The translations under genes and the position numbers were made by a program. The notes below the pieces were generated by a model. That model saw only the letters and a list, made by a program, of their open reading frames with translations. It did not search any database and was not told where the DNA came from. Shown here piece after piece: positions 7,324 to 25,512 of a stretch of 64,000 nt of DNA (positions are counted from its first letter, which is position 1; every line of letters starts with the position of its first letter). Origin of the DNA: Blastocatellia bacterium (GTDB lineage Bacteria; Acidobacteriota; Blastocatellia; UBA7656); contig DATLXU010000127.1 in assembly GCA_035575515.1 (NCBI GenBank), positions 97,356-161,355 on the forward strand, in the 5' to 3' direction.

Positions 7324-9057
7324 TCAATACCCGATTGCCATCCCATCTTTGCGCGGGTCCGACGCGCCTGCGAGCATCCCCGTCGCCGGATCAATCATAA
7401 TCGCCTGACCGCCACCCATCGAAAGCGACCTATCGCTCATTCGCTCGTGACCTTTTTCAATCAATCGCTTGATGACCGCGTCACCCATCGCATCTTCCAT
7501 TATAACTCGCCTGCCGCTCACAAAACGAAATCGAGGCGCTTCAATCGCCTGCTGCAGATTCATCTTCAAATCAATCAGGTTCACAAGCACCTGCGTGTGG
7601 CCCTGCGGCTGGATGCCTCCGCCCATCACGCCGAACGACATGAAAAGTTTTCCGTCACGGAATACCATCGCCGGAATGATTGTATGAAAAGGTCGTTTGC
7701 CCGGCTCAAGCCTGTTGGGATGATTTGGATCGAGCGAGAATCCCGCGCCGCGATCATGAAGCACAATGCCCGTATCGCCCGCGACTATGCCTGAGCCGAA
7801 TGATTCGTAAAGGCTGTTGATGAACGAGACGGCGTTTCGGTCCTTATCAACGACGGTGAAATAAGTCGTGTCGCTGTGATTCGGAACAAGGCCCGGCTCG
7901 GCTTCGTCCATCGCGCGGTCAGAGTTGATGAGCTTGCGCCGCTCGGCTGCATATTGTTTCGAGAGCAGCTCGGCGACGGGAACCTTTGCGAAAGCCGGAT
8001 CAGCAATGTAGCGGTTGCGGTCTGCGAACGCCAGCTTCATCGCTTCGATCATCGTGTGATAATAAAGCTCAGGCTGCGCAGCCATCTTTGCAATATCAAA
8101 GCCTTCAAGGATGTTCAATGCTATCAGCGCCGCGAGTCCTTGCCCGTTCGGCGGGCATTCGTAAACCGTGTAGCCGCGATAGTCGGTTGAAATCGGCTCG
8201 ACCCACTCGGATCTGTGCTCAGCGAAATCCTGCATCGAAAGGAAGCCGCCGTTCTTCTGGCAGTAATCAACGATGGCGCGGGCGATCTCGCCTTTGTAGA
8301 AAGCATCGCGCCCGCCGCGAGCAAGCACACGAAAAGTGCGCGCGAGATTTTTCTGGCGGAAAACTTCGCCAGCGCGCGGCGCGCGTCCGTCAATCAAATA
8401 ATTCGCCGCAGCGGCAGGAGTCTTCTTGAGCTTATCAACTTCTGCGGCCCAATCCGCTGCGGCTTTTTCCATCACGGGAAAGCCGTTCTCGGCGTACTCG
8501 ATTGCGGGCTGAAGCAGGTCGCTCAATTTCATCGTGCCGTATTTTTCCAGCAGCGTCACCCATCCGTCGAATGCGCCGGGCACGGTGATTGGTTCCATGC
8601 CTGTGATCGGCATCTGTTTGATGCCGCGCTTTTTGAAATAGTCGAGCGTGAGCGCGCGAGGCGCTCGCCCGCTGGCGTTCAATGCTTTTAGCTCTTTCGT
8701 CTTCGACCAGTAGACGAGCATGAAAGCATCGCCGCCGATGCCTGTCATCATCGGCTCGGTGACGTTCAGCATCGCAGCCATCGCGATTGATGCATCAACG
8801 GCATTGCCGCCGCGCTTTAAGATTTCAAGCCCCACCTGTGAAGCGAGCGGCTGGCTCGACGCAACCATCCCGTGCTCGGCGCGCACGATTGAGCGGCCTG
8901 CTTTGACCCGCGCGGCAAGAGGCTTGTCGTCAGACGATTCGAGATGTGCTTCAACGCGGCGCAATTGCAGATTCATCATCAGCATTATAATCGCGAGCGC
9001 GATTGACAGGCTTGTGCGAGCGGCGTTTCGATTGAGCGATTTTCTGATATACGACAT
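7324..9057 (-). CDS. ggt: Gamma-glutamyltranspeptidase
   Basis: Signal peptide plus the catalytic Thr region TTYFTVVD and GGGIQ..GHTQV motifs of the GGT family. Confidence 0.9.
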   Translation of the reverse strand: MSYIRKSLNRNAARTSLSIALAIIMLMMNLQLRRVEAHLESSDDKPLAARVKAGRSIVRAEHGMVASSQPLASQVGLEILKRGGNAVDASIAMAAMLNVTEPMMTGIGGDAFMLVYWSKTKELKALNASGRAPRALTLDYFKKRGIKQMPITGMEPITVPGAFDGWVTLLEKYGTMKLSDLLQPAIEYAENGFPVMEKAAADWAAEVDKLKKTPAAAANYLIDGRAPRAGEVFRQKNLARTFRVLARGGRDAFYKGEIARAIVDYCQKNGGFLSMQDFAEHRSEWVEPISTDYRGYTVYECPPNGQGLAALIALNILEGFDIAKMAAQPELYYHTMIEAMKLAFADRNRYIADPAFAKVPVAELLSKQYAAERRKLINSDRAMDEAEPGLVPNHSDTTYFTVVDKDRNAVSFINSLYESFGSGIVAGDTGIVLHDRGAGFSLDPNHPNRLEPGKRPFHTIIPAMVFRDGKLFMSFGVMGGGIQPQGHTQVLVNLIDLKMNLQQAIEAPRFRFVSGRRVIMEDAMGDAVIKRLIEKGHERMSDRSLSMGGGQAIMIDPATGMLAGASDPRKDGMAIGY

Positions 9058-9188
9058 AGCGATTCACCTGCTTTGCGATTGGCTCCCGGTGAGATGATTT
9101 TACCGAAGCGCGATTATCGCACGATTATCTGAGGTGTCAACCGGATTGCGTCGGCTCGCTATGTTCACCTCTGCGCCCTCGTCGTATA

Positions 9189-10400
9189 ATGCAGACTATG
9201 CGAGCGGTAAAGGAGCAGAAGAGCAAAGCCGGATACATCATAGCGACGCTCTCAATCGCAGCCGCGACCGCCGCGCTTAAATTGTTCGGCAGCCATATCA
9301 ATTCAACAACAGTCGCGCTCGCGCTGCTGTTGATTGTTCTGTTCGTTGCAACTCGATGGGGATCGCGCCCCGCCGTCGTCGCTTCATTGCTCAGCATGGT
9401 TTGCTTCAACTATTTCTTCCTTCCGCCGGTGGGCACGTTGACCATAGCGACGCCCGACAACTGGGTTGCGCTCGCCGCGTTCTTAATCACCGCCGTCACC
9501 GCCGGAGAGCTTTCGGCTCGCGCAAGGCGGCGCGCCGAAGAGGCCGAAGCCGGACGGCGCGAGATCGAGCGTTTATACAGTGAGCTTCAAGACGCATTCG
9601 AGCGCGCAAGCTATGCGGAAGCTCTCAAACGTAGCGAGCGGTTGAAATCGGCTTTGTTAGACGCCGTGACGCATGACATTCGCACGCCGCTCACTTCCAT
9701 CAAAGCGTCCGTTACGACACTGCTCGACGAGTTGCGCGCAATGACAGGTGAAGCGGTCGCGCTCGACGCGGAAGGCCGCAGAGAGATGCTTGAAATAATT
9801 AACGAGGAAGCGGATCGGTTGAATCGTTTTGTCGAAAACCTTCTGGAGCTTGCGCGCATAGAAGCAGGCGAGATGCATCTCAGGCGCAGGTGGGGAGCGA
9901 TTGACGAGATAGTGCTTGCGGCGCTTGAGCGAGCCGAGCCGCTCACACGCCGTCACCGGATTGAAGCGGCTGTCGAGAACGAATTGCCGCTGGCGCGCGT
10001 TGACGGGCGAGCCGTTGCTGAAGTCCTTTATACTCTCATTGACAACGCCGCGAAGTATTCTCCGGCGGGCACGCGCATACGGGTTACGGCCAGTCGAGTT
10101 GATGAGAAGCTATTGCAGCTGTCGGTTGAAGATGAAGGGCCGGGCATTCCCGTTGAGATGCGCGAGCGCGCCTTCGATAAATTCTTTCGCGCAATGCGTG
10201 ACGGCGACTCAGGCGCGGGCCGCGCTTCGGGCGTAGGGATGGGACTGGCAATTGCGCGAGGCATTATCGAGGCGCACGGTGGGCGCATCTGGATTGAAGA
10301 TGGAGAGAACGGGCGCGGGACTCGCGTCGCGTTCACGTTGCCGGTGGGCAATGAAGAAGAAATTGCTCTGGAAGAATTGAAGCAGATCAGCTCCCGATGA
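9189..10400 (+). CDS. kdpD: KdpD C-terminal half: four-TM domain plus HisKA/HATPase sensor kinase; no KdpD N-terminal or Usp domain
   Basis: N-terminal TM bundle typical of the KdpD membrane domain, then H-box THDIRTPL and N/G boxes (GTRVAFTLP); adjacent to kdpE. Confidence 0.75.
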
Positions 10401-10520
10401 ATCGCAGGCAATTTTTGGAGCGATGCTTCACGCTTGCAGCCTTCAAAGAAGGTTTTCAAAAGAGCGGGCAAACCGCCGCACTCTGAAACTATTCAGAAAT
10501 CGCAAACGCGCGATTAGCGC

Positions 10521-11222
10521 ATGAACGAAAAGAAGCGCATTCTAATCGTCGACGACGAGCCGCAGATCACGCGCGTGCTCAGGCGCAGCCTGACCACGCA
10601 CGGCTACGACGTGCGCAGCGCCGCCGACGGTGAAAGCGCGCTTGAAACGTTCGGCGATTGGCCCGCCGATCTTGTCGTCACTGACCTTGCGATGCCGAAT
10701 GTCAATGGCATTGAGCTATGCCGACGATTGCGCGCTTTGTCGCGGGTTCCGATCATCGTGCTCTCGGTTCGCGGCGAAGAGCAGATGAAGGTTGAAGCGC
10801 TGGATGCGGGCGCGGATGATTATGTGACGAAGCCCTTTGGCATGGACGAGTTGCTTGCGCGCATCCGGGCGGCGCTGCGCCGCGCGCCTGAGGCTCACGC
10901 CGATGGCGAAGCTCTAACGATTTTGAAAGCGGGCGATTTTCGCGTTGACCTCGCAGCGCGCATCGTCACGGTCCAAGGCCGCGAAGTTCGCCTCACGCCG
11001 AAGGAATTCGACCTGCTGGTTTATATGATCGGCCACAGCGGAAGAGTTTTGACGCACCGCGCGCTGCTTGCCGCCGTGTGGGGCGGCAACTACGTCGAAC
11101 AGCACGAATATCTGCGTGTTTTCGTCGGGCAACTGAGAAAAAAGATTGAGCCAGACCCGGCCTCGCCGCGCTACATCCTGACAGAGCCGTGGATAGGTTA
11201 TCGGTTCAATCCCGGCGCGTGA
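10521..11222 (+). CDS. kdpE: OmpR-family response regulator KdpE
   Basis: Receiver domain (ILIVDDEP...DLAMP) plus winged-helix (LTPKEFDLL...GYRF); lies between the kdpD kinase half and the kdpFABC operon. Confidence 0.85.
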   Translation: MNEKKRILIVDDEPQITRVLRRSLTTHGYDVRSAADGESALETFGDWPADLVVTDLAMPNVNGIELCRRLRALSRVPIIVLSVRGEEQMKVEALDAGADDYVTKPFGMDELLARIRAALRRAPEAHADGEALTILKAGDFRVDLAARIVTVQGREVRLTPKEFDLLVYMIGHSGRVLTHRALLAAVWGGNYVEQHEYLRVFVGQLRKKIEPDPASPRYILTEPWIGYRFNPGA

Positions 11223-11261
11223 AACTCTCCTGTTTGTCCCGCATCAATCCTTACGAACTTT

Positions 11262-11292
11262 TTATAATCATTTTACTCCACCCTTACGCGCC
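11262..11292 (+). promoter_or_regulatory. Candidate KdpE operator (TTTATA-N5-TTTACT direct repeat) and promoter for the porin-kdpFABC operon
   Basis: TTTATAatcatTTTACTcc mirrors the E. coli kdpFABC KdpE box TTTATActtttTTTACAcc; followed by ccttacgcgc, which is also conserved at the second site at 21875. Confidence 0.5.
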
Positions 11293-11294
11293 CG

Positions 11295-12884
11295 GTGCTA
11301 GCCTGTGAATGTGACGAGGTCCTGCAAGGAACTGCGGCCAGCCGACGCGCTGGGGAGATGAAAATGGGGATAAAATTGTTGGCAGCAGCTTTCGCCATCG
11401 CGATGGTTGTTTTGTTGTGGCTGCGCGAATTCATCCTCAGCATTGGAAAAAAGAAGAAAGCTGGCAGTGTCCACGAGGTGCTCGTCGTGCGCGCAGAGGA
11501 TGAAAGAAGACCGCCAGAGCGCGCAGATGTGGAAGAGAGTCCAGACGAAGTTCAGCCCGACGCTTCATCGGTTGAGATTGAAGAGTTTCTTGCCGAGCTT
11601 CGCGCGAAGGCGCAAGACAAGCCGCGCAAGAATAACTCTCTTTTCTTGATAGCCATCCCGGCTCTAGTTGCAAGCTGGTTGCCTGCTGCGGCTTCAATCT
11701 GTCGCGCTCAAAGCTCTAGCATCAAGATAGGCCCGGTCGTTTCTGACAAGACTAATTCCGGCAAGTCGTTACTCGATAATGCGGTCGCTGAGGAAGTAGC
11801 GTCTCAAGAACCGCAGAAACAGCAGTCGAAGCCTGAATGGAACTATGGTGGCTTCGTGGATGTTGGCTACTCGCTCGATTTCAACCATCCGGCAAATCTG
11901 TTTTTCCGAAGTCGCGGTACCGCTTGGCACGTCGATAACTTGTATCTGAATATAGCGGGCGCATATGTGAAGAAAGATCCCTCCGAATCTTCACGATGGG
12001 GCGGTCAATTGACAGTCCAAGGGGGGAAAGATTCCGAGGTTTTTGGGTTCTCCGCAACGGCTCCAAACATCGGAGGTTTCAAAGTCCTTCGCCACCTCGG
12101 TCCAACAAATGTGTCTTATCTTGCGCCTGTGGGCAAGGGACTCACTGTGCAGGGTGGAATCTTCGGCAGTTTGATCGGCTACGACTCGCTCTACGCCAAG
12201 GATAATTTAGAATATACCAGACCGTGGGGAGCCGACTTCACGCCGTATTTGATGATGGGCGTCAACGCGAGTTATCCCTTCAACGAGAAGCTCACCGGCG
12301 CGTTCTTCGTGATCAATGGATACTGGCATCTGGCCAACGCGAACAGTGTCCCTAGTTCGGGTGGCCAACTTGCCTATAAGGCAAGCCCGCGCGTGACAGT
12401 GAAGGAAACGGTTCTTTGGGGGCCTCATCAGTCGAACACCTCATTCAAGTTCTGGCGCTTCCTTACGGACACCATTGTCGAATGCAAGACAGATCGAGTT
12501 ACTTTTGCATTTGAATACATCTACTCGTCGGAACGTGTTGACGCTCTTGGAACGCCCCGCGCCTTGATGATGGCTGGCCAGTTGCCGGTGCATTTTGCTT
12601 TGAACAAACGGTGGAGTGCAACCGTTCGACCTGAGGTTTTCTGGGATCGCAATGGCCGGTGGACCTTAGCCAGGCAGACCGTCAAAGCCATCACGACTAC
12701 GCTCGAATATCGCATCCCGTACCGACAAACCAATACGATCCTGCGGCTGGAGCACCGGTATGACGATTCGCGGGGGCCAGATGGAGGCTTCTTCAGAGGT
12801 GCTGAAGTACAGCCAGGCATGGTCGGCTTGACGCCAACCCAGCACCTTTTGATTTTCGGGCTGCTCTTCACGTTCGACCGCTAA
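11295..12884 (+). CDS. Predicted outer-membrane beta-barrel porin co-transcribed with kdpFABC; start codon uncertain (11364 preferred)
   Basis: C-terminal ~380 aa show alternating amphipathic beta-strand patterns ending in the aromatic terminus LLFTFDR; the N-terminus is unusual (TM-like segment, acidic linker, second hydrophobic segment). Confidence 0.5.
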   Translation: MLACECDEVLQGTAASRRAGEMKMGIKLLAAAFAIAMVVLLWLREFILSIGKKKKAGSVHEVLVVRAEDERRPPERADVEESPDEVQPDASSVEIEEFLAELRAKAQDKPRKNNSLFLIAIPALVASWLPAAASICRAQSSSIKIGPVVSDKTNSGKSLLDNAVAEEVASQEPQKQQSKPEWNYGGFVDVGYSLDFNHPANLFFRSRGTAWHVDNLYLNIAGAYVKKDPSESSRWGGQLTVQGGKDSEVFGFSATAPNIGGFKVLRHLGPTNVSYLAPVGKGLTVQGGIFGSLIGYDSLYAKDNLEYTRPWGADFTPYLMMGVNASYPFNEKLTGAFFVINGYWHLANANSVPSSGGQLAYKASPRVTVKETVLWGPHQSNTSFKFWRFLTDTIVECKTDRVTFAFEYIYSSERVDALGTPRALMMAGQLPVHFALNKRWSATVRPEVFWDRNGRWTLARQTVKAITTTLEYRIPYRQTNTILRLEHRYDDSRGPDGGFFRGAEVQPGMVGLTPTQHLLIFGLLFTFDR

Positions 12885-12895
12885 GGATCCGGGTA

Positions 12896-13096
12896 GTGGA
12901 GGTGACAGAACTTTACACAGAGCTTAAAGCGCGACACGAGGCCGGCATATCGGAGTGGTCTCTGGTAAAGCGAATGGCGGAGGTCTTCGTCAAAGACCTT
13001 CGTTACTACATAGATTTCCTTATGGCTTGCTTTCTAGTCTGGCGTGAATTGCGCCGCGAGAGGGAAAGCGCAAAGAACAAGGATATTGCGGGGTAG
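12896..13096 (+). CDS. Hypothetical small protein between porin and kdpF
   Basis: 66-aa ORF with no recognisable family; coding status uncertain. Confidence 0.2.
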   Translation: MEVTELYTELKARHEAGISEWSLVKRMAEVFVKDLRYYIDFLMACFLVWRELRRERESAKNKDIAG

Positions 13097-13190
13097 ACAT
13101 GGGAGACATCATCTTCATCGCGCTGACAATTGTTTTCTTCGCCTTGTCCGTCTGGTACGTCCGATTCTGCGAAAAGGTGTAGGAGCCAAG

Positions 13191-13283
13191 ATGACGAATA
13201 TCGAATACATAATCAGCGGAGTAATTGCCCTGCTGTTGCTCTTTTATCTGATGTACGCGCTACTCAAGCCAGAGAGGTTTTAG
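13191..13283 (+). CDS. kdpF: Potassium-transporting ATPase subunit F
   Basis: [30 protein letters not shown], cf. E. coli KdpF MSAGVITGVLLVFLLLGYLVYALINAEAF; missed by the 60-aa ORF cutoff. Confidence 0.8.
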
Positions 13284-14155
13284 AGCGTGTTGAGAAATTA
13301 GAGGAGAGGCAGTGGAAATGGGTAAACTGTCATTGCCATGAACCGCACAACCCTATCCATCTGACCTCTCCGATGAGCAGTGGAAACTGCTCGAACCTAT
13401 GTTACCACCTGCGGTTCCTGCGCGGTCGCAAGCGAACGGTGGATTTGCGCGAAATTGTCAACGCTATCCTTTACCTGCTGCGGACGGGTTGTGCTTGGCG
13501 TTATTTGCCTCACGAGTTCCCCGAGTGGACGACCGTTTATTATTACTTGCGGTTGCTGGCGCGACTTAGACTGGTTCGCCAAACTCAACGGCGAATTACG
13601 CAGCCCGCATCCGCAGGGCTTACGGACGCGACCGTAGACCCTAGCGCCGCCATCATCGATTCGCAATCGGTAAAGACGACCGAGCACGGGCGGCGAAAAA
13701 GGCTATGACGCGGGCAAGAAAGTCAATTGGCGCAAGCGTCATATCCTGGTCGATACCTTGGGCTTGTTGCTCTCGGTCAAAGTCTTGGCAGCCAATATCC
13801 AAGACCGCGGGGAGCGCGAAAGCCTTACTCGATGAAGTCAAAGAACGACCCCCGCGCCTCCACTTGATCTGGGCCGATGGCGGCTATGGCGGCAAGTTGA
13901 TTACTTGGGTAGCGACGAAGCGGTTTGTGGTTATTGCAAGTCGTCAAGCGCACAGATGACGTCAAAGGCTTCGTGGTTTTGCCCAGACGATGGGTCGTTG
14001 AACTTGCCCTTCGGCTGGCTGGGTCGCCCGCCGACGATTGAGCAAAGACTATGAGCGGCATTGTGAATCCTCCGAGTCGTTTGTTTATCTGGCGATGATT
14101 CACCTGATGCTCAAGCGGTTGAAGCCTATGCGAACTTAATTTCTCAACACGCTCT
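13284..14155 (+). mobile_element. Decayed IS5-family insertion sequence with perfect 19-bp terminal inverted repeats, inserted between kdpF and kdpA
   Basis: Left IR AGAGCGTGTTGAGAAATTA (13282-13300) and right-end reverse complement TAATTTCTCAACACGCTCT (14137-14155); internal reading frames encode transposase fragments. Confidence 0.8.
13363..14133 (+). pseudogene. IS5-family (DDE) transposase disrupted by at least four frameshifts
   Basis: [16 protein letters not shown] / [30 protein letters not shown] / [14 protein letters not shown] / [24 protein letters not shown] / LIWADGGYGGKLI / [18 protein letters not shown] lie in three different frames. Confidence 0.8.
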
Positions 14156-14160
14156 TAGAT

Positions 14161-15936
14161 ATGACTATCAACGGTTGGTTGCAAATCCTGTTATTCCTCG
14201 CGGCAATCTTGCTGGTCACAAAGCCGCTCGGTGTCTATATGGCGCGAGTGTTTAATCGCGAGAAAACGTTTCTCGATAGGGTGTTGCGCCCAATCGAACA
14301 ACTTATCTATCGCCTGACTCGCGTTGACGAATCGCGCGAGATGCGCTGGACCGAGTACGCCGTCGCGATGCTACTGTTCAGTGCCGTCTCGATGGTGGTG
14401 CTATACCTACTTCAGCGGCTTCAAGGTGTGCTGCCTTTCAACCCACAGAACCTGTCAGGCGTCGGAGATCATTCATCTTTCAACACAGCCGCGTCGTTCA
14501 CGACAAACACCAACTGGCAAAGCTACGTGCCAGAAACGACGATGAGCTACCTGACGCAGATGGCCGGGCTCGCTTATCACAATTTCGTCTCTGCCGCGGT
14601 CGGCATCGCACTCGCCATTGCCTTCATTCGTGGCATCGCCCGGCGCGAGAAAGACACAATCGGCAACTTCTGGGTTGACTTTGTGCGCTGCACCCTCTGG
14701 GTGCTTGTCCCGTTCTGCGTAATCGGCGCGCTCGCGCTCGTCTCGCAGGGCGTCGTACAAAACCTCAAACCTTATGACACGGCGAAGCTCGTCGAGCCGC
14801 TGACGGTAGAAAAAGAGTTGGAGGATGGCAGGAAAACTACGGAGACAGTCATCGAGCAGGTGATAGCTCAAGGGCCTGTCGCGTCGCAGGAGATAATCAA
14901 AGAGTTGGGCACAAACGGTGGAGGGTTCTTCAACGCCAATAGTGCGCACCCGTTTGAAAATCCCACGCCGCTTGCGAACTTCATAGAACTGTTTGCCATC
15001 TTCGCCATCTCTTCGGGGCTTACTTACACGCTAGGGCGAATGACCGGCTCGCAGCGACACGGTTGGGCCGTGTGGGGAGCGATGGCCGCGCTGTTTCTGG
15101 TCGGAGTCGCAGTCAGCTACTGGTCAGAAGCGCGAGGCAACCCGCTGCTTGCGGGCACTGACCAGACCGTAAGCGCGATGCAATCGGGCGGCAACATGGA
15201 AGGCAAAGAAGTCCGCTTCGGCATTGCCAACTCTGCGCTGTTTGCAACCGTCACGACCGACGCATCGTGCGGTGCGGTCAACTCGATGCTTGACTCATAC
15301 ACGCCGCTCGGCGGGCTTGTGCCGCTTACAAATATGATGCTCGGCGAAGTCATATTCGGCGGCGTCGGCGCTGGTATGTACGGCATTCTGATTTTCGTAA
15401 TACTTTCAGTCTTCATCGCGGGATTGATGGTCGGTCGCACGCCTGAATACTTGGGCAAGAAGATTGAAAGCTATGACGTGAAGATGGCGATGCTCGCCGT
15501 GCTGATCTTCCCTCTGACAATTCTCATACTGGCGGGCATATCGGCAATCTCGCCGTCGTTTGGCACATCGAGCATCTTAAATCCCGGCCCGCATGGGCTT
15601 TCAGAGATTCTTTACGCTTACACTTCCGGCACTGGCAACAACGGCTCTGCGTTCGCAGGGATTTCTGCCAACACGCCCTGGTACAACACGACAATTGGGC
15701 TGGCGATGCTTATCGGGCGATTCCTGATAATCATCCCGATGCTTGCTGTCGCGGGCAATCTCGGTCGCAAGAAGATAGTGCCGCCATCGCTCGGAACGTT
15801 TCCCGTAACGACGCCGCTGTTCACGGCGCTGCTCGTCTCGGTGATCGTGATTGTTGGTGCATTGACTTTCTTTCCTGCGCTGAGCCTTGGCCCCATTGTT
15901 GAACACTTGCTGATGGGAGCGGGACAAAGTTTCTGA
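14161..15936 (+). CDS. kdpA: Potassium-transporting ATPase subunit A
   Basis: [32 protein letters not shown]-terminus and selectivity-filter-like regions; 591 aa. Confidence 0.9.
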
Positions 15937-15944
15937 GGTCGAAC

Positions 15945-18004
<2,060 letters not shown>

Positions 18005-18008
<4 letters not shown>

Positions 18009-18562
18009 AAAACTTTGTGACGGCTATATTGATGGCGATAGTGACGACGATTTTGCTTGGTCTGGTTTATCCGCTCGTCGTAACGGGACTCGCGCAGGTC
18101 ATATTCCCTGACAAAGCCAACGGGCAGTTGATCGTGCGCTATGGCACGGTCATAGGCTCGCGCATCATTGGCCAGCCTTTCGCATCGCCGCGCTACTTTC
18201 ATTCGCGGCCTTCTGCGGCGGGCGCGGGCTATGACGCGGGCGCGTCTTCAGGCTCGAATCTCGGCCCGACCAATAACGCTTTGATCGAGCGCGTGAAGAC
18301 GGATGTCGAAAGCCGACAAAAAGAGAATCCTAACGCGCCCGTGCCGATTGATCTGGTGACGGCTTCGGCTTCTGGGCTCGACCCGCACATCTCACCGGCA
18401 GCGGCAGAATTTCAGGTGCCGCGAGTGGCGCAAGCGCGCGGATTGAGTGTTGATGAGGTGCGCCGTCTTGTGCAAGAGCATACCGAAGGCAGGACGTTCG
18501 GGATATTAGGCGAGCCGCGCGTCAACGTGCTCGAATTGAACCTGGCGCTGGATAAAAAGTGA
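18005..18562 (+). CDS. kdpC: Potassium-transporting ATPase subunit C
   Basis: Single N-terminal TM helix plus [14 protein letters not shown], the KdpC signature; overlaps the kdpB stop. Confidence 0.88.
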
Positions 18563-18632
18563 AAAGTGAAAAGTGGATAACAGCGAGAAGCTTGCCTTAA
18601 CACTATTCACTATTCGCTTTTCACTATTCGAT
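18563..18632. repeat. Intergenic heptamer-repeat palindrome (aaaagtg)3 ... (cactatt)3
   Basis: aaaagtgaaaagtgaaaagtg ... cactattcactattcgcttttcactattc between kdpC and the downstream kinase. Confidence 0.6.
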
Positions 18633-20525
18633 ATGAATAGCCTGAGACAAAAGCTGGCACTGAGCTACGGGTTGCTGATAATCATTATCTTCGCCGTCAG
18701 CGCGTGGAGCATCTATCATCTTGTGACGCTTGGCCGGGCGATTGATGTAATACTGGTTAATAACTACAAGAGCATCGTCGCAGCCGAGAATATGAAAGAA
18801 GCTCTTGAGCGACAGGATTCCGCAGCGATGTTTTTCATCGCCAGCCACGCCGACAAGGCTCGCCAGCAATTTGAAGCGAACAGCCAAAAGTTTTCTCAGG
18901 AATTTGAAATCGCCGCAAATAACATCACCGAAAAAGGCGAGCCGGAAATCATCAACGACATAAACGCGAAGTATCAGGCTTACCGAAGCGAGCTTGAAAG
19001 TTTTCTCAACCCGGCAGCGACTCTAACAGCAGCCAAGCAGTCCAACATCTACTTTGAAAGGCTTGAGCCGCAGTTCATCGCAATCAAAGACAAGCTGGAC
19101 GACTTGCTGCGCCTCAACCAGCAGGCTATGGTCGCGGCCAACGACCGCGCCATTTCCGTATCGCAACGCGCGGAGATTTCGACCGCAGTAACGGCGGCGC
19201 TCGCGCTTGCTCTGGCTTTGATATTCGCGTGGCAATTCACGCGCTACGTCGTCACGCCAATTTCAACTCTCAGCCAGAAGGCACGGCTGATAGGTGAAGG
19301 CGACCTGGATCAGCGCATAAGCGTTTCATCAAAAGATGAGATAGGCGTGCTTGCTGCGGAGTTCAACCGTATGCTTTTACGATTGCGCGAGGCGCGCAAA
19401 TTCGATTATGGGCGATTGCTTATCGAGCAGAAAAAATCGGATGCGGTGATTGATTCTCTCTACGAGCCGGTGATAGTGACCGATGCGCGCGGCCACGTTA
19501 TTAAGATCAATCGCGCGGCCAGCCAGTTGTTCAGCAACGGCAATAAAGGCGACTTGGATTTTTCACTGTCGCAATTCACGGGGGGCGAGCGCATACTGCG
19601 CGTGGTGCGCGATGTTGTTGCGATGCAGCGGCCCGTCGCCGCCGAAGGCGAGGCTGCGCTTGTGCCAATCGAGGTAGGCGGAGCCGAGCGCAGCTTTCGA
19701 CTGCGCGCAACTCCCATGCGCGACTCTGACGGGCGATTGCTTGGCGCAGTCACGGTACTTGAAGATGTCACAGCCATAACAGAGGTTGACAGGCTGAAAA
19801 CAGAATTCATCTCCGTCGCATCGGGCAAGCTGCGCGAGCCGCTTCATTCGCTTCAACTCGCGCTTCATGCAGTCATCGGAGGCTACGCAGGCGAGTTGAA
19901 CGATCAACAAGCGGATATGCTCGTGACAGCGCAGGAGAATGCAGAGAAGCTCGAAGAGATGATGAATGACCTGCTTCAGTTGGCAGAGATTGAATCGGGC
20001 GCGCGACGGCTTTCAATTCAACGGCTCCGCCCCGTTGATCTGGCGCGCGCTTGCGTTGAGAGGTTTCGCCCTCTAGCTGAAAGCAAACAGATTAAACTTG
20101 AAAACAATGTCTGGCCTGACCTGCCGTGGGTTGTTGGCGACCGCGAAGCTGTCGCGCGCGTCTTTGATAACTTGCTGTCGAATGCTATACGCCACACAGG
20201 GCGCGGCGGGCGCGTCACGATTGAAGCAAGAGAGCGCGCTGGGCGAGTCTTTTTCAGCGTGCGCGATACGGGCGAGGGCATACCTGAAGAGCACCTGCCC
20301 GTTTTATTCAGTCGCTTCGCTCGCGTTGGCAATAAAGCGGGCAGCACTGGGTTAGGGCTGGCTCTGGTGAAACGATTGGTGGAAGCGCAGGGAGGGCAAG
20401 TCAGCGTCGAAAGTCGCGTGGGCGAAGGCTCGACCTTTACTTTCACGATGCTCGAAGGCGGCCCTGCAAGCGTCAGGAGCACTGACCAGACGCGGGGACG
20501 CGGAGACGCGGAGACGCGACGATGA
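18633..20525 (+). CDS. Sensor histidine kinase (TM-periplasmic-TM, HAMP, PAS, HisKA, HATPase); the ORF track allows an earlier start at 18573
   Basis: Two TM segments, HAMP (EFNRMLLRLREA), PAS-like region, H-box, N/G boxes (HTGRGG, GLGLALVK); 3' end encodes RGRGDAETRR from GC-rich tandem repeats. Confidence 0.8.
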   Translation: MNSLRQKLALSYGLLIIIIFAVSAWSIYHLVTLGRAIDVILVNNYKSIVAAENMKEALERQDSAAMFFIASHADKARQQFEANSQKFSQEFEIAANNITEKGEPEIINDINAKYQAYRSELESFLNPAATLTAAKQSNIYFERLEPQFIAIKDKLDDLLRLNQQAMVAANDRAISVSQRAEISTAVTAALALALALIFAWQFTRYVVTPISTLSQKARLIGEGDLDQRISVSSKDEIGVLAAEFNRMLLRLREARKFDYGRLLIEQKKSDAVIDSLYEPVIVTDARGHVIKINRAASQLFSNGNKGDLDFSLSQFTGGERILRVVRDVVAMQRPVAAEGEAALVPIEVGGAERSFRLRATPMRDSDGRLLGAVTVLEDVTAITEVDRLKTEFISVASGKLREPLHSLQLALHAVIGGYAGELNDQQADMLVTAQENAEKLEEMMNDLLQLAEIESGARRLSIQRLRPVDLARACVERFRPLAESKQIKLENNVWPDLPWVVGDREAVARVFDNLLSNAIRHTGRGGRVTIEARERAGRVFFSVRDTGEGIPEEHLPVLFSRFARVGNKAGSTGLGLALVKRLVEAQGGQVSVESRVGEGSTFTFTMLEGGPASVRSTDQTRGRGDAETRR

Positions 20526-20586
20526 AACTTTCTAAACGAACCATTGCCGCATCTCAGATATAGGGCAGTTAGTTCAGTAATAAACA

Positions 20587-21732
20587 ATGAGCCAGGTTGT
20601 TGACACACGACCGAAAGCAGAGTCGCTGCTTGCACGGCAGCAACAGGCGCGGCGCGCGTGGCTGCGATTGTATATCGGCGCGGCTCCTGGCGTCGGCAAG
20701 ACTTATCAAATGCTCGAAGAGGCGCATCTTCTCAGGCGACAGGGCGTAGATATAGTCATCGGCCTCATCGAGCCGCATGGCCGCGCTGAAACCATAGCTT
20801 TGATAGACGAACTTGAGCGCGTTCCGCTGCGCCGAATAGAGTATCGCGGCGTCACGCTTGAAGAGATGGACGTTGAGCGTGTCATTGCGCGCAAGCCCGA
20901 AGTGGTCATCGTTGACGAGCTGGCGCACACGAACGTTCCCGGCTCGAAACATCACAAGCGATATGAAGATGTGCTGGAAATACTTGACGCAGGAATCTCT
21001 TGTATCACCGCATTCAATGTACAGCACATAGAATCGCTCAACGATACCATCGCGCGCATAACGGGCGTTCGCGTGCGCGAGACGATACCGGATTATTTCC
21101 TGCGCCGCGCCGATGAAGTGGTTAACATTGATGTATCGGTTGACACGCTGCGCACGCGGCTTCGTCAGGGAAAGATTTACAGCATAGAAAAGATCGAGCA
21201 GGCGCTTGCCAACTTCTTTCGCAAGGGCAATCTATCTGCGCTGCGCGAGCTTGCGCTGCGCCAGGTTGCCGAAGATCAGGCTGCAAAGGCGCACGACTAC
21301 CGCGAGCGCGAGGGACTAGAGCAGGCGGCAATTCCTGAAAAAGTCATGGTCTGCATGTCATCGCGTAGCAGCGCAAAAAAACTCCTGCGCACAGGCTCGC
21401 GCATTGCCGGACGGTTTGCTTCGGACTGGTACGCGGTCTATGTCGAAACGCCTCGCGAGGAGCCTAGCCGTATCAAGCCAGAAGACCATGCGGCGCTGAT
21501 GGAAAACATCCGATTTGCCGAAGAACTGGGCGCGAAAGTGGTACAGCTCAAAGCGCGCTGGGTTGCCGACGCGCTCATCGAATTTGCGCGGCGCGAAGGC
21601 GTCACGCACGTTGTCTTCGGCCAATCGGCCCGCTCCCGCTGGGACATACTGCTACGCGGTTCGGTAATAAATCGCTTTCTGAACGAGGTGCGCGACGCGA
21701 CTGTGCAAGTCGTCCCGCTTTCTGAAGGATGA
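20587..21732 (+). CDS. kdpD: KdpD N-terminal sensor domain plus Usp domain as a stand-alone protein; no TM or kinase
   Basis: GAAPGVGKTYQML Walker-A-like motif of the KdpD N-domain, then a Usp-like C-terminal half (KVMVCMSSRSS...HVVFGQS). Confidence 0.8.
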   Translation: MSQVVDTRPKAESLLARQQQARRAWLRLYIGAAPGVGKTYQMLEEAHLLRRQGVDIVIGLIEPHGRAETIALIDELERVPLRRIEYRGVTLEEMDVERVIARKPEVVIVDELAHTNVPGSKHHKRYEDVLEILDAGISCITAFNVQHIESLNDTIARITGVRVRETIPDYFLRRADEVVNIDVSVDTLRTRLRQGKIYSIEKIEQALANFFRKGNLSALRELALRQVAEDQAAKAHDYREREGLEQAAIPEKVMVCMSSRSSAKKLLRTGSRIAGRFASDWYAVYVETPREEPSRIKPEDHAALMENIRFAEELGAKVVQLKARWVADALIEFARREGVTHVVFGQSARSRWDILLRGSVINRFLNEVRDATVQVVPLSEG

Positions 21733-21863
21733 AAAAGAGACGCGGCGACCCGAAGATGCGATAATATATTTGTGTCAAGCGCGCTGTCGCCGCGTCGCCC
21801 TATCGCCGCGTCTACGTGTCCACGCGTCTCCGCGTCGTTTCTTCCATTTACCTCGTCGCAATC

Positions 21864-21905
21864 TTTATGAAAACTTTATAAACTTTTTACGCCATCCTTA
21901 CGCGC
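21864..21905 (+). promoter_or_regulatory. Candidate KdpE operator: TTTATG-N5-TTTATA-N5-TTTACG direct repeats, upstream of small ORFs and the KimA-like gene
   Basis: TTTATAaacttTTTACGcc, then atccttacgcgc, nearly identical to the site at 11262-11292. Confidence 0.5.
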
Positions 21906-22027
21906 GAAGTCTTACCGTGATTATTTGAGAGACTGTATGAACCGCAAATCGCGCTCGCCTATTTTGCCTGCCATCATCTCTTTGTTGTGGAGATCGGGAT
22001 CAACTTTAACTGAAAAGAGTAACTGCT

Positions 22028-22201
22028 ATGGACCCGTTTGTAATTATATTTGCCGCGCTTCTGCTCATCGCATGGCTCGTAGCTGATGCTCACGATAGGC
22101 GCGCGAAGAGGAAGATTGAAAATGCGACGACAACGTCGCACAACCGCTCGGATGGGCAAGAGAAAAGCAAGCGCGCAGATAGAGCAACGCGAGACTCATG
22201 A
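22028..22201 (+). CDS. Possible small membrane protein (57 aa)
   Basis: MDPFVIIFAALLLIAWLVADAH... single TM then a basic tail; below the ORF-track length cutoff. Confidence 0.25.
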   Translation: MDPFVIIFAALLLIAWLVADAHDRRAKRKIENATTTSHNRSDGQEKSKRADRATRDS

Positions 22202-22219
22202 AACGGACTTTGAAAACCG

Positions 22220-22525
22220 ATGCTATCAATAGGTCGTGAAATCAACATAAGTCAAAAAGAAGTCGTTTGCCGCAAATGCCATTGGGAAGGCGCGGGCAGC
22301 CAGCTTTCAATCGGGTTGATTGAGATTGCCCACACGCAGATGTACCTTGCGGCCTATCGCTGCCCACAGTGCCACAGCTTCGATGTAAATCGCAAAGGCA
22401 AGCTGCTTGAGTTTCGTTTGCCCCGCGCGCTCGATTATCAGCAAACGGACGCAGCCACACGCGATGAAAACAGCAACGAAAACGAATCGCGAAAAGATAG
22501 AGGGACGACTCCTTTATGGAGATAG
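22220..22525 (+). CDS. Small zinc-ribbon protein (CxxC...CxxC)
   Basis: CRKCHWEG and CPQCHSFD Cys pairs; lies in the leader region of the KimA-like gene. Confidence 0.35.
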   Translation: MLSIGREINISQKEVVCRKCHWEGAGSQLSIGLIEIAHTQMYLAAYRCPQCHSFDVNRKGKLLEFRLPRALDYQQTDAATRDENSNENESRKDRGTTPLWR

Positions 22526-24939
22526 ACAGTATGGAGATAGACAGCCTTACGCCTAAGACTCCAACAACTCAGAATCGCGTCAGGGTAGTCGTCGCCACGA
22601 CCGTTATGCTTTCGTTCATTTCATTCTGGCGAGCGGCGGCTATTGTCTTAAACGATCTCGGCTCGTCTGCTTTTTATGTCGGCGGAATTGCAGAAAAAGC
22701 TGTGGGGCGAGCGGCTCCTTGGTTCATTCTCGGCGTGATGCTTTTCTCTTACGCCGTGCGCGCCGTTTACGTCGAATCGTGCGCGATGTTCACGCGCGGC
22801 GGCGTTTATCGCGTAGTGAAAGAAGCAATGGGCGGCACGCTCGCAAAGCTTAGTGTCTCGGCTTTGATGTTCGATTACATCCTGACCGGGCCGATTTCCG
22901 GCGTATCAGCAGGCCAGTATATAGTCGGCCTTGCCGCGCAAACCTTAACTTATCTCGGCCATCCGTTGAGTCCCCCTCAATCAACCGTCAATGCAATCGC
23001 GGCTGGTATAGCAGTTTTGATAACCATTTATTTCTGGTGGCGAAATACTAAAGGGCTGCACGAATCATCAGGCGACGCGCTGCGAATAATGTACGTCACG
23101 ACGGCTATGATCGTGATGCTGATAGTGTGGTCAGGCCTGACCATTCTCACCCAGCCCGATAAACGGAGATTACCACCCGCGCCCGTTGCCGAAAATCTTA
23201 GTTTCAATCGCGACGCCGTCGGCTGGCTGCCCAGTATCGCGCCCGGCGCATTGCGAGAGTTGCCGCAGGAAGCCGCACCCGCCGATTCGCCCGCGCCTGA
23301 CCAAACTGCAACTGAGCCGCGCTACGGCATCATCGAGAACGCGGGCGCGCTCTTGGGACTGATCGGAATCCTTATGGCTTTCGGCCATGCGTTTCTCGCA
23401 ATGAGCGGCGAAGAATCGCTCGCGCAGGTCTATCGCGAGCTTGAATACCCGAAGCATAAAAACCTGATGCGAGCCGGGCTTGTGATATTTGTCTACTCAC
23501 TGCTGTTCACATCGCTCGTATCGTTTTTCGCTTACGCAATCATCCCTGACGATGTGAGACCTCAGTATCTTGATAATCTCATCAGCGGCATCTCGATTTA
23601 TCTGATAGGCCCTATGCCGCTGAAGCTGTTGTTTCAAGCCTTCATCGTAATAGTAGGTTTTCTGATGCTTGCGGGCGCGATCAATACTTCGATCATCGGA
23701 TCGAACGGCGTGTTGAATCGTGTGTCGGAAGACGGCGTGCTGACGGACTGGTTTCGTGCGCCGCATCGCAAATACGGTACGACACACCGGATCATTAACC
23801 TGATAGTCGTCCTGCAACTTGTCGCCATCGTCGCCTCGCGCGGAAATACTTACACGCTCGGCGAGGCCTACGCGTTCGGCGTGATATGGTCGTTTGCATT
23901 CAAGGCGCTCGCCGTGCTTGTGCTTCGATTCAAAGACCGCTCGGGCCGCGAGTGGAAAGTCCCTTTCAACATTCGCCTCGACGGCAACGAGCTTCCAATC
24001 GGACTTGGCGTAATCACGACGCTGTTGTTTTCGGTCGCGGGAATAAACCTGATAACGAAAGAGGTGGCGACCGTAGCAGGCGTCGCTTTCACAATAGTCT
24101 TTTTCGTCATCTTCACAATCTCGGAGCGAATCAACCAGCGAAAGCTCGACCGATCAATTGCGGCGCTCGACCAGTTCAAGCTGCACTACGAGCAGAACGT
24201 GAGCATTGATACTGTGAACGTGCGACCCGGCAATGTGCTTGTCGCCGCGCGAGACTATAACACGCTCTCGCATCTCGACCTCGCGCTTGAGCGCATTGAC
24301 ACAGACGAGCAGGACATCGTTGTGATGACGGTAATGGTGATACGTGGGCGCGGGCGCGGGCGAGCGCGATTTGTACGATGCGAACCTGTTCACAGATTAT
24401 GAGCAGCGATTGTTTACGCGAGTCGTTGCGCTGGCCGAGCGACACGGCAAGCCCGTCAACCTGCTCGTCGTGCCGTCAACGAACGTCTTCGACGCAGTGG
24501 CGCAGACCGCGTTGCGATTGGATTCAGCCGAGATAATCACAGGGCTGTCGGCAAAGATGAGCGCCGCCACGAGCTTTCGCGCCGATTGGGCCAGGCGTGG
24601 GAGCGGTTGCCTGAAAAGCCTCGCCGCCAGGTTAAATACACCGTTGTAGAGCCGAGCGGTCACGAGCGCGTCTTTTATCTCGGAGCGCACGCGCCCCAGC
24701 TTACGGAAGAAGACATAAATCTGATTCACAAGATATGGCTTGAGGTGAGCAAGCTGCCGGCCCGCCGCAAGGTGCATCATCGCGACGTTGTGCGTGTGGC
24801 ATTAGAGCGGCTCGCGCGCGATCTGCGCGGGCAGACGGACGTGATGCTGGACTTTTACAGGCTGGAGCACAACGAGGGAAAAAAGATTGGCAGCCGGGTT
24901 GATCGGTCTGACAATAGCGATGCTGGCGGCAGAAAATAG
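22516..24939 (+). pseudogene. kimA: KimA-like APC-superfamily K+ transporter gene with two frameshifts in the cytoplasmic C-terminal domain
   Basis: The N-terminal 12-TM domain aligns by eye to B. subtilis KimA (GGVYRVVKEAMG...FDYILT vs GGAYIVSKENLG...VDYILT; NTKGLHES vs NLRGLSES). The intact frame ends at 24402, but the homologous domain continues in two other frames to 24939. Confidence 0.6.
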
Positions 24940-25017
24940 CGGAAGCAATAACGGCATTCATAACTATTCAATCCCGATAGCCATGAATGCCGTTGTTCCG
25001 AGCGCAAGAGCGGCGCG

Positions 25018-25512
25018 CTATTCGATGTCGGTGACTTTGCCTTTCACCAGAGTGACTTTCAGTTTTAAAGCGGAGTAGATGAGTATCTCTTTCGATCCGG
25101 CGCTGATGGTTCTGTCAGGCTCGCCGAATTTCGCAATCACGTCTTTGCGCTCGATGCCGGGTTTCAATTCTACATTCTTGCCAGACTGCGCGCCGCTTTG
25201 AGCCTGCGATGCGCCCGCGTGAACATCGTCTGAAGGCGCGGTCGCGCCACCGTGAATGGCATCGTTTGGCGGCATCGCGCCTTCGGGCAACGGGCCTGCC
25301 GGAATAGTCTCGCCGGGCTTGATTGGCGGATGACCTTCGGGAAGCTGCGGCGCGCTCGTTTGAGTGCCGCTGTTGACGGATTCCGATTTCGGCCTGCCCT
25401 CTTCTACAACCTGCGAACCGGCTTTGCTCGTCGTCCAATTTCCTACGAGAAAGCCGAGCACGAGACCGGCGACTATGCCTATGATTCCATAACTTATGTA
25501 TTGCCTCTTCAT
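25018..25512 (-). CDS. Hypothetical membrane-anchored protein with a Pro/Gly-rich linker
   Basis: N-terminal TM (IIGIVAGLVLGFLVG), low-complexity linker, small C-terminal domain. Confidence 0.5.
   Translation of the reverse strand: MKRQYISYGIIGIVAGLVLGFLVGNWTTSKAGSQVVEEGRPKSESVNSGTQTSAPQLPEGHPPIKPGETIPAGPLPEGAMPPNDAIHGGATAPSDDVHAGASQAQSGAQSGKNVELKPGIERKDVIAKFGEPDRTISAGSKEILIYSALKLKVTLVKGKVTDIE

Follow-up and report, generated by a model that had tools for sequence, protein, structure and literature searches.

Here, we describe the Kdp potassium-pump locus at positions 9189–21732, and its close flanks, in a 64-kb stretch of Blastocatellia DNA (contig DATLXU010000127.1); this whole stretch is called the window below. 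The sensor kinase KdpD is divided here into two proteins, a short membrane-bound histidine kinase (HKc) and a soluble protein carrying the KdpD N-domain and a Usp domain (KdpD-N/Usp, gene kdpD-N), whose genes lie at opposite ends of the locus. Between kdpC and kdpD-N lies a further gene, the PAS gene, encoding a HAMP-PAS sensor that has the fold of a histidine kinase and no phospho-acceptor histidine. The split layout itself is already known and is the norm in Acidobacteriota; what is new here is a conserved His-less sensor adjoining a stand-alone serine kinase. We think it probable that HKc and KdpE control transcription of the pump operon, that KdpD-N/Usp acts as a brake on the pump subunit KdpB, and that the His-less PAS protein works by contact with another protein.

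The question raised by such a locus is how a soluble, stand-alone serine kinase is controlled when it has been cut off from the K+-sensing transmembrane (TM) and GAF domains. In Deinococcus, the answer is cyclic di-AMP (c-di-AMP) (Silberberg et al. 2024, PMC11018627). The PAS protein, with its histidine-kinase ancestry and its retention next to kdpD-N, is a concrete and testable candidate for a controller; if it were unrelated to K+, the locus would be one more member of the known split-KdpD class. The related loci are also natural material on the passage from two-component kinase to pseudokinase, with His-containing forms that have a regulator and His-less forms that have none in closely related genomes.

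Domains were assigned by Pfam and NCBIfam profile searches of the open reading frames (ORFs) of the window, together with the ORF listing, and the features are collected in Table 1. Every gene and domain claimed in an earlier note on this DNA, made from the letters alone, was found at its coordinates with very strong scores.

The PAS protein as a histidine pseudokinase

The PAS protein is made up of a first TM helix, a periplasmic four-helix bundle, a second TM helix, HAMP and PAS domains, and the DHp and CA domains of a histidine kinase. Its H-box reads FISVAS-G-KLREPL, placing glycine at the phospho-acceptor site, where canonical kinases have S-H-E-L-R-T-P-L. This H-box aligns without gaps to those of His-containing homologs, and in phmmer alignments the glycine pairs with the histidine of VicK, the histidine of the 8U4X kinase and the tyrosine of DivL. 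The E/DxxT/N phosphatase motif is lost too, with lysine at +1 and glutamate at +4. Across 120 ortholog clusters (65–100% identity), the acceptor site is occupied by serine in 63, alanine in 25, glycine in 19, glutamate in 4, and aspartate, arginine and threonine in 3 each; histidine is found in none. Because the residue is so variable, the position drifts freely with no selection on it. With glycine at the acceptor site and the phosphatase motif gone, the canonical route for adding phosphate to KdpE or removing it is closed to the PAS protein. The earlier note had taken this gene for a second full sensor kinase and had proposed a three-component sensing arrangement feeding KdpE. The loss of the acceptor histidine leaves both unsupported, although the presence of a third sensor-like protein embedded in the operon is confirmed, and this protein is conserved.

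The ATP-binding part has been retained. HATPase_c matches at 1.5e-28, the N, G1, F and G2 boxes are intact, and N513, N517, D545, G547, G549, F559 and G573–L576 are invariant in 37 sequences of 65–85% identity. Compared with six relatives, the ratio of non-synonymous to synonymous substitution rates (dN/dS) of the PAS gene is 0.07–0.15 over its full length, like those of kdpB and kdpC, and the periplasmic helix bundle, HAMP and PAS domains carry long conserved stretches in the ortholog clusters. Because the acceptor histidine is absent while the ATP boxes are invariant and dN/dS is low, the protein is, on its sequence, a conserved histidine pseudokinase and not a functional histidine kinase.

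Structure prediction and family assignment place the protein among the HAMP-PAS kinases. An AlphaFold2 model of the monomer shows the order TM, four-helix bundle, TM, HAMP, PAS, DHp and CA and is of moderate quality (predicted local distance difference test, pLDDT, 72; predicted template-modelling score, pTM, 0.40). Its top Foldseek matches are WalK, VicK and also DivL, which are generic histidine-kinase folds and give no mechanistic insight. The best NCBIfam families are WalK, PnpS and PhoR rather than KdpD, the orthologs carry the JGI label ‘KinB’, and the best PDB sequence match of the DHp-CA part is DivL (1.4e-33, 35% identity).

The wider family was searched among 1.8 billion cluster representatives, of which the best 150 at 50% identity were examined. 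An H-box could be recognised in 118 of these relatives, and 112 of the 118 keep its histidine. Since the His-less members are the nearest clusters, while these 112 relatives retain the residue, the loss is derived. One 254-amino-acid (aa) fragment, P0388, which is 67% identical to the PAS protein, has the pseudokinase-type H-box context with the histidine kept (VAS-H-KMREP) and may represent an intermediate step on the way to losing the catalytic site.

The PAS gene in related genomes

Our synteny survey, with one genome per species, returned 80 loci, all from Blastocatellia or Pyrinomonadaceae. The genomes were sorted by layout, 76 being classifiable and 4 not. Layout A (kdpC, PAS gene, kdpD-N), which is that of the window and its nearest relatives, occurs in 16 genomes; layout B (kdpC, kdpD-N, PAS gene) occurs in 47; and layout C, with no PAS gene at this position, in 13. 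The gene thus directly adjoins kdpD-N in 63 of the 76 classifiable genomes, upstream of it in 16 and downstream in 47, with gaps mostly of −7 to 100 nucleotides (nt). The PAS genes of layout A are 67–86% identical to that of the window and those of layout B about 40%, with the architecture unchanged.

In a neighbour-joining tree, the PAS proteins of layout A, none of which has the acceptor histidine, group into a single clade; layout B contains a further His-less clade as well as two isolated His-less proteins. A response-regulator gene is adjacent to 20 of the 26 His-containing PAS proteins and to 0 of the 18 His-less ones (counts that are not phylogenetically independent); likewise, no REC gene flanks the PAS gene in the window. 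This combination of missing histidine and missing regulator is seen at two or more separate positions in the tree, and the catalytic histidine appears to have been lost more than once. The overall picture suggests a HAMP-PAS kinase that has been persistently kept beside kdpD-N and that, where the regulator is absent, has lost its histidine and is yet maintained by selection.

The His-containing homologs of the sister lineages pair not with KdpE but with a regulator that we call REC-X, composed of a REC domain and a conserved domain (X) of about 130 aa. In layout B, the PAS gene usually has this regulator gene after it; the X domain matches no Pfam or NCBIfam family, and the window contains no homolog of it. 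In Pyrinomonadaceae loci, the REC-X gene lies 3′ of the His-containing PAS kinase (e.g. L044 13172–13939, and also L031, L036 and L073) and is sometimes present as a tandem duplicate; the X domain is also found alone between kdpE and kdpA (L043 3747–4094; L023 3864–4193). A few loci carry a second, divergent kdpA-like gene (~48% identical) between kdpC and either the PAS gene or kdpD-N (L025 6265–7965, L032 903–2621 and L052 3962–5662).

The stand-alone KdpD-N/Usp protein and its predicted target

The KdpD domain is an atypical serine kinase (ASK) that inhibits the pump by phosphorylating KdpB at Ser162; the domain can do this in isolation, and the natural stand-alone KdpD/Usp protein of D. 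geothermalis phosphorylates KdpB in vitro (PMC11018627). We compared the proteins of the window with E. coli KdpD and KdpB taken from NC_000913.3. In KdpD-N/Usp, the ASK residues of E. coli are matched by G31-x5-G37K38T39, Y40, D110E111 and R191, Y40 corresponding to E. coli W39, and 153 of the 380 residues aligned to E. coli KdpD are identical. On the target side, KdpB keeps T160-G-E162-S163, the last two residues corresponding to E. coli E161 and the regulatory phospho-serine S162, as well as D308. Among related species, the serine-kinase motifs are kept in 77–79 of 80 KdpD-N proteins and the TGES motif in 60 of 61 KdpB proteins.

KdpD-N/Usp shares 45% identity across 359 aa with the D. geothermalis protein, whose biochemistry has been studied, and matches PDB entry 2R8R at 1e-67. 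It has no TM or kinase part and is thus a separate chain, as in the published split class. The NCBIfam family NF038185, ‘KdpD-like non-kinase potassium sensor’, matches with 437 bits over positions 5–370 of 373, below its cut-off of 550; judged by this profile, the protein shares the NF038185 architecture and falls outside that curated family. Because the serine-kinase motifs are conserved and the protein is homologous to the characterised D. geothermalis enzyme, the best-supported prediction is that KdpD-N/Usp is a post-translational brake on the pump and not, or not only, a modulator of kinases. The earlier note had seen a stand-alone N-domain correctly and had cast it as a modulator of either kinase; the latter idea is outdated, as homologs act directly on KdpB (PMC11018627) and all catalytic motifs are kept here.

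Motif I of the Usp domain is exactly of the E. coli type (RTGSR-x8-WYAVY, fitting the pattern RxxxR-x8-WxAVY), and the S. aureus c-di-AMP motif SxS-x20-FTAxY is absent from the Usp domain of the window. The motif cannot decide the c-di-AMP question, because the c-di-AMP-responsive D. geothermalis protein has neither the E. coli-type nor the S. aureus-type motif. In a 2024 survey, 29 of 37 Acidobacteriota had no annotated diadenylate cyclase (PMC11018627). With an E. coli-like Usp motif and most Acidobacteriota lacking an annotated cyclase, control by c-di-AMP, as demonstrated for the Deinococcus protein, may not apply here.

One metagenome-assembled genome (MAG), that of locus L028, has a second kdpD-N copy beside a histidine kinase-kdpE pair on another contig (L040), with no pump genes between; some genomes therefore carry two KdpD-N paralogs.

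The division of KdpD

The division of KdpD into a stand-alone N-domain/Usp protein and a separate TM kinase adjoining kdpE, as the earlier note had described it, is borne out and recurs across the survey. A stand-alone kdpD-N gene lies 3′ of kdpC in 80 of the 80 species-level loci, and a histidine kinase-kdpE pair lies 5′ of the pump genes wherever the contig extends far enough. The best 120 KdpD-N homologs are all 378–414 aa long, and the best 120 HKc homologs are all 369–473 aa long, each with DUF4118, HisKA and HATPase_c. The nearest homologs come from Blastocatellia and Acidobacteriota, and the Kdp region of the window is 100% identical to contigs of MAG GCA_037024495.1 and sister assemblies. 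A relative on an 855-kb contig, whose KdpD-N is 86% identical, has the order histidine kinase, kdpE, kdpF, kdpA, kdpB, kdpC, PAS gene and kdpD-N; the porin and the insertion sequence (IS) of the window are absent from it, and its PAS gene and kdpD-N overlap by 4 nt.

That the two halves might be one gene broken by an assembly error, a frameshift or recent pseudogenisation, a caveat raised in part by the earlier note, is refuted by these comparative data, and we regard it as vanishingly improbable. The halves are separated by 10 kb that include the entire pump operon, both are complete ORFs with start and stop codons of their own, and the same layout is seen in independent assemblies and in 80 species, which excludes an assembly artefact or recent pseudogenisation. 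They also belong to a published class. We found no supporting evidence for a broken gene, the sole lesion at the locus being the IS between kdpF and kdpA.

The earlier note did overestimate the novelty of the split. Silberberg et al. (2024) classified KdpD in 5495 species and distinguished five common classes, one of which, ‘KdpD domain, Usp domain + TM, GAF, DHpCA domain’ on separate chains, comprises 140 species (PMC11018627, Supplementary Data 2). This class accounts for 31 of the 37 Acidobacteriota species, making it the majority state there (PMC11018627). Before that, Dani et al. (2017) had described and experimentally tested the kdpBAC-kdpD-N arrangement of D. radiodurans, where a sensor-kinase/regulator operon lies immediately upstream, and had noted truncated kdpD genes of a similar kind in cyanobacteria (PMC5716572).

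The kinase half and KdpE

HKc has four TM helices (DUF4118), a DHp domain with its histidine present (THDIRTPL) and a CA domain; it has no KdpD-N, Usp or GAF domain. Its best NCBIfam family is KdpD, matched at profile positions 658–889. When it is aligned to residues 381–894 of E. coli KdpD, TM1–4 and DHp/CA match and a gap of ~120 aa falls at the GAF domain, only ~30 residues separating the end of DUF4118 (120) from the start of HisKA (153). GAF is missing from all 120 best HKc homologs too, so that the locus departs in this respect from the named split class; a separate KdpD-type TM kinase with its catalytic histidine, together with KdpE, is present as in that class.

The H-box histidine is found in 26 of 28 orthologous HKc loci, and almost every locus that extends far enough has kdpE directly 3′ of HKc. 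With its H-box intact and kdpE directly downstream, HKc is the obvious phosphodonor for KdpE, and from homology and synteny we infer that the two are cognate partners. A by-eye comparison of the DHp specificity positions +7/+8/+11/+12 gave T,S,A,S for HKc; H,S,L,A for the PAS protein; T,S,M,G for its His-containing homologs; and T,V,G,Q for E. coli KdpD, with no informative resemblance among them.

A model for the locus and its alternatives

The model that we favour has two arms. In the transcriptional arm, HKc would phosphorylate KdpE, as its homology and synteny suggest, and phosphorylated KdpE would activate the promoter of an operon made up of a small ORF (sORF27), kdpF, kdpA, kdpB, kdpC, the PAS gene and kdpD-N. 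In the post-translational arm, which draws on motif conservation and the published biochemistry of homologs, the soluble KdpD-N/Usp protein with its Walker A and B motifs would phosphorylate KdpB at Ser163 and block the pump when K+ is sufficient. Because kdpD-N has stayed downstream of kdpC, this brake would be made together with the pump. The PAS protein would act through protein-protein contact, most likely with no phosphotransfer, relaying a signal from the membrane or periplasm to either KdpD-N/Usp or the GAF-less HKc and so replacing the sensory TM/GAF tether lost when KdpD was split. A more specific form of this proposal makes the PAS protein the missing signal input, a former histidine kinase turned periplasmic sensor anchored in the membrane. 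Its direct contact, perhaps ATP-dependent, would switch KdpD-N/Usp on or off and thereby gate KdpFABC after translation, in a phylum largely without c-di-AMP synthesis, and the His-containing form with REC-X in sister lineages would be the ancestral, phosphotransfer version of the same control; to this more specific form we give rather little credence.

Several observations weigh against the favoured model. The PAS gene is absent from beside kdpD-N in the 13 layout C genomes, so the partnership is not obligatory, and adjacency alone would fit KdpD-N, HKc, KdpE or the pump as the partner. In the window's clade of PAS proteins, conservation of a histidine at +14 (LALH) is 98% or higher; this residue is a potential alternative acceptor, a role argued against by the other His-less clade, where this position is H, Y or F. 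The strict conservation of the ATP boxes suggests that ATP is still used, which would fit a catalytic role, for example serine/threonine phosphorylation or trans-phosphorylation, at least as well as pure allostery. The NCBIfam scores of both KdpD-N and KdpE fall under the equivalog cut-offs (for KdpE, 227 bits against 325). Finally, the inserted IS may disturb normal expression of the pump operon in this genome.

A catalytic PAS protein could take two forms. The first is that of the earlier note, with two working histidine kinases, HKc and the PAS kinase, both phosphorylating KdpE and KdpD-N/Usp tuning one or both. In E. coli, a separated KdpD N-domain does act in trans on the C-terminal kinase half; KdpE is the sole response regulator in the locus, and the conserved +14 histidine leaves a small chance of non-canonical autophosphorylation. 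We nevertheless consider this reading very unlikely: neither the PAS protein nor any of its 120 ortholog clusters has an acceptor histidine and the residue there is variable, the phosphatase motif is lost as well, the His-containing homologs pair with REC-X instead of KdpE, and the best NCBIfam families of the protein lie outside KdpD. Alternatively, the PAS protein could be an active serine/threonine kinase of the histidine-kinase fold with KdpB, KdpD-N/Usp, HKc or KdpE as its target. Such enzymes include subfamily-2 ethylene receptors, mitochondrial PDK/BCKDK and anti-sigma-factor kinases; we know of no specific substrate motif or precedent for them in Kdp systems, which counts against the idea. 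The invariance of the N, G1, F and G2 residues while the histidine position drifts would fit it, as would a HATPase_c_2 (anti-sigma-factor-type) Pfam match above threshold (30.4 bits; cut-off 27.4), and the Kdp system is already under serine-phosphorylation control (PMC11018627). However, HATPase_c_2 overlaps a far stronger HATPase_c match and also occurs in His-containing relatives, and pseudokinases such as DivL likewise keep a folded CA domain; on balance, a serine/threonine kinase seems to us unlikely.

The PAS gene might also be a passenger with no role in K+ transport, the decaying remnant of an unrelated two-component system whose regulator was lost. The His-containing homologs do have their own regulator, which is gone from the His-less ones, the gene survives in fragments at L033, L056 and L083, and layout C lacks the gene at this position altogether. 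Set against this are the low dN/dS over the full length, which indicates strong purifying selection, the existence of 120 full-length ortholog clusters, the high conservation of the sensor, HAMP, PAS and CA motifs, the adjacency to kdpD-N kept despite the flip in gene order, and the translationally coupled 4-nt overlap with kdpD-N in some loci. The selection on the gene and its retained adjacency make a passenger role quite improbable.

Comparison with known systems

The closest known systems are the split KdpD systems (PMC11018627, PMC5716572), with the truncated KdpD proteins of Anabaena and Synechocystis among them. There, as in the window, the pump operon ends in a stand-alone KdpD-N/Usp gene, the C-terminal half of KdpD has its counterpart in a separate membrane kinase encoded beside a response regulator 5′ of the pump genes, and the Walker A/B serine-kinase motifs and the TGES motif of KdpB are conserved. 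The window differs in carrying, between kdpC and kdpD-N, an additional gene for a His-less PAS sensor, in the porin and second small ORF that form part of the locus, and in a kinase half that lacks the GAF domain of the named class (TM, GAF, DHpCA). Its kinase-regulator pair is co-oriented with the pump genes, whereas that of D. radiodurans is divergent. The pump subunits, the regulator family and the overall domains are shared with the E. coli KdpD/KdpE-kdpFABC system, in which a single 894-aa KdpD (KdpD-N, Usp, TM, GAF, DHp, CA) follows kdpC and precedes kdpE; in the window, its halves are at opposite ends.

For the PAS protein, the nearest parallel is DivL of Caulobacter crescentus, a histidine pseudokinase with tyrosine in place of histidine (PDB 4Q20; Childers et al. 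2014, PMC4211667). Both have a histidine-kinase fold with PAS, DHp and CA domains and no acceptor histidine, and in the window protein this fold is under selection; DivL serves as a sensor or adaptor for another kinase, with no phosphotransfer. DivL has a conserved tyrosine, in contrast to the glycine of the window protein and the G, S, A, E, D, R or T, never Y, of its orthologs. The window protein also has a periplasmic four-helix bundle and a HAMP domain and sits in a K+ pump operon rather than in a cell-cycle network. The WalK/VicK- and KinB-type HAMP-PAS kinases have the same domain order and fold, but the PAS protein has lost their catalytic histidine and phosphatase motif and has no cognate regulator adjacent. 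Our literature searches found no paper describing a conserved His-less sensor beside a stand-alone KdpD-N, and nothing on kdp regulation in Acidobacteria beyond the 2024 survey (PMC11018627).

Locus layout, insertion sequence and neighbouring genes

All genes of the Kdp locus are encoded on the + strand (Table 1). The earlier note had described a kdpFABC cluster; the four genes are present, but they are not contiguous, since an 872-bp IS5-family element parts kdpF from kdpA.

Table 1. Features of the Kdp locus, with positions in the window
Feature	Position	Strand	Evidence and remarks
HKc, short KdpD-type histidine kinase, 403 aa	9189–10400	+	Pfam DUF4118 6e-28, HisKA 5e-16, HATPase_c 6e-27
kdpE, OmpR-family response regulator	10521–11222	+	Pfam REC and Trans_reg_C; best NCBIfam family KdpE, 227 bits
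BBP2 (OmpL-like) outer-membrane porin, 508 aa	11358–12884	+	Pfam PF07642 1e-45; longest ORF from GTG 11295
sORF27, hydrophobic small ORF of 27 codons	13099–13182	+	Conserved directly 5′ of kdpF (tblastn)
kdpF	13191–13283	+	NCBIfam TIGR02115, 37.9 bits (cut-off 26.85)
IS5-family (IS427-like) insertion sequence, 872 bp	13283–14154	+	Pfam DUF4096 and DDE_Tnp_1; NCBIfam IS5 transposase
kdpA	14161–15936	+	TIGR00680, 750 bits, above curated cut-off
kdpB, P-type ATPase subunit	15945–18008	+	TIGR01497, 1090 bits, above curated cut-off
kdpC	18005–18562	+	TIGR00681, 241 bits, above curated cut-off; 4-nt overlap with kdpB
PAS gene, 630 aa, 4HB_MCP_1-HAMP-PAS-HisKA-HATPase_c, predicted histidine pseudokinase	18633–20525	+	Pfam; frame open from GTG 18573
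kdpD-N, KdpD-N/Usp protein, 381 aa	20587–21732	+	Pfam KdpD 9e-93 (residues 23–229) and Usp (251–367)

The IS has perfect terminal inverted repeats of 18–19 bp and a TTA target duplication at 13280–13282 and 14155–14157; together with its DUF4096/DDE transposase, these are the features of IS5/IS427-like elements, which have inverted repeats and a short TTA/TAA duplication. It sits exactly at the kdpF stop codon, 6 nt 5′ of the kdpA ATG. The transposase reading frame is broken into four pieces; unless sequencing errors account for these breaks, the copy is probably inactive. Removing the IS in silico restores GAGAGGTTTTAGATATG, in which a GAGAGG Shine-Dalgarno sequence precedes the start of kdpA by 8 nt; in relatives, the gap between kdpF and kdpA is 2–90 nt. 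No second copy was found in the window, and the element is absent from the loci of all other species in the survey, being present only in the population of L003–L005. The insertion displaces the Shine-Dalgarno sequence of kdpA and parts kdpABC, the PAS gene and kdpD-N from the promoter, and pump expression may be impaired or driven from the IS in this genome. The pump genes are intact; expression therefore persists by read-through or from the IS, or else the lesion is recent.

Directly upstream, sORF27 adjoins kdpF in 55 related loci at 48–74% identity in tblastn searches (e.g. L001 3228–3311). A profile search gave no family match for it, and it may be an extra small membrane subunit or a leader peptide of the Kdp operon. 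An Rfam scan of 8500–25500 at E ≤ 1 returned no match, neither a ydaO/c-di-AMP riboswitch nor another known RNA, and scans for sigma-70 promoters and terminators gave counts at or below the shuffled expectation and were uninformative.

Downstream of kdpD-N, a 101-aa protein with two CxxC pairs, resembling a zinc ribbon, is encoded at 22220–22525 and overlaps the start of a gene at 22516–24402 for a 628-aa APC-family permease (AA_permease_2). This pair of genes is conserved 3′ of kdpD-N in several layout A loci. We considered the permease as a KimA-like K+ transporter and found no support: it has no NCBIfam match, and the solved KimA structure is not matched, because there is no PDB sequence match at 1e-3.

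The BBP2 porin gene between kdpE and kdpF varies among relatives. It is absent from L001 and is found at this position in many, though not all, Blastocatellia loci (L007, L010–L012, L018, L019, L028, L037, L039, L047, L048 and L058). Versions elsewhere are either ~83% or only ~27% identical to the porin of the window, which suggests repeated recruitment or replacement.

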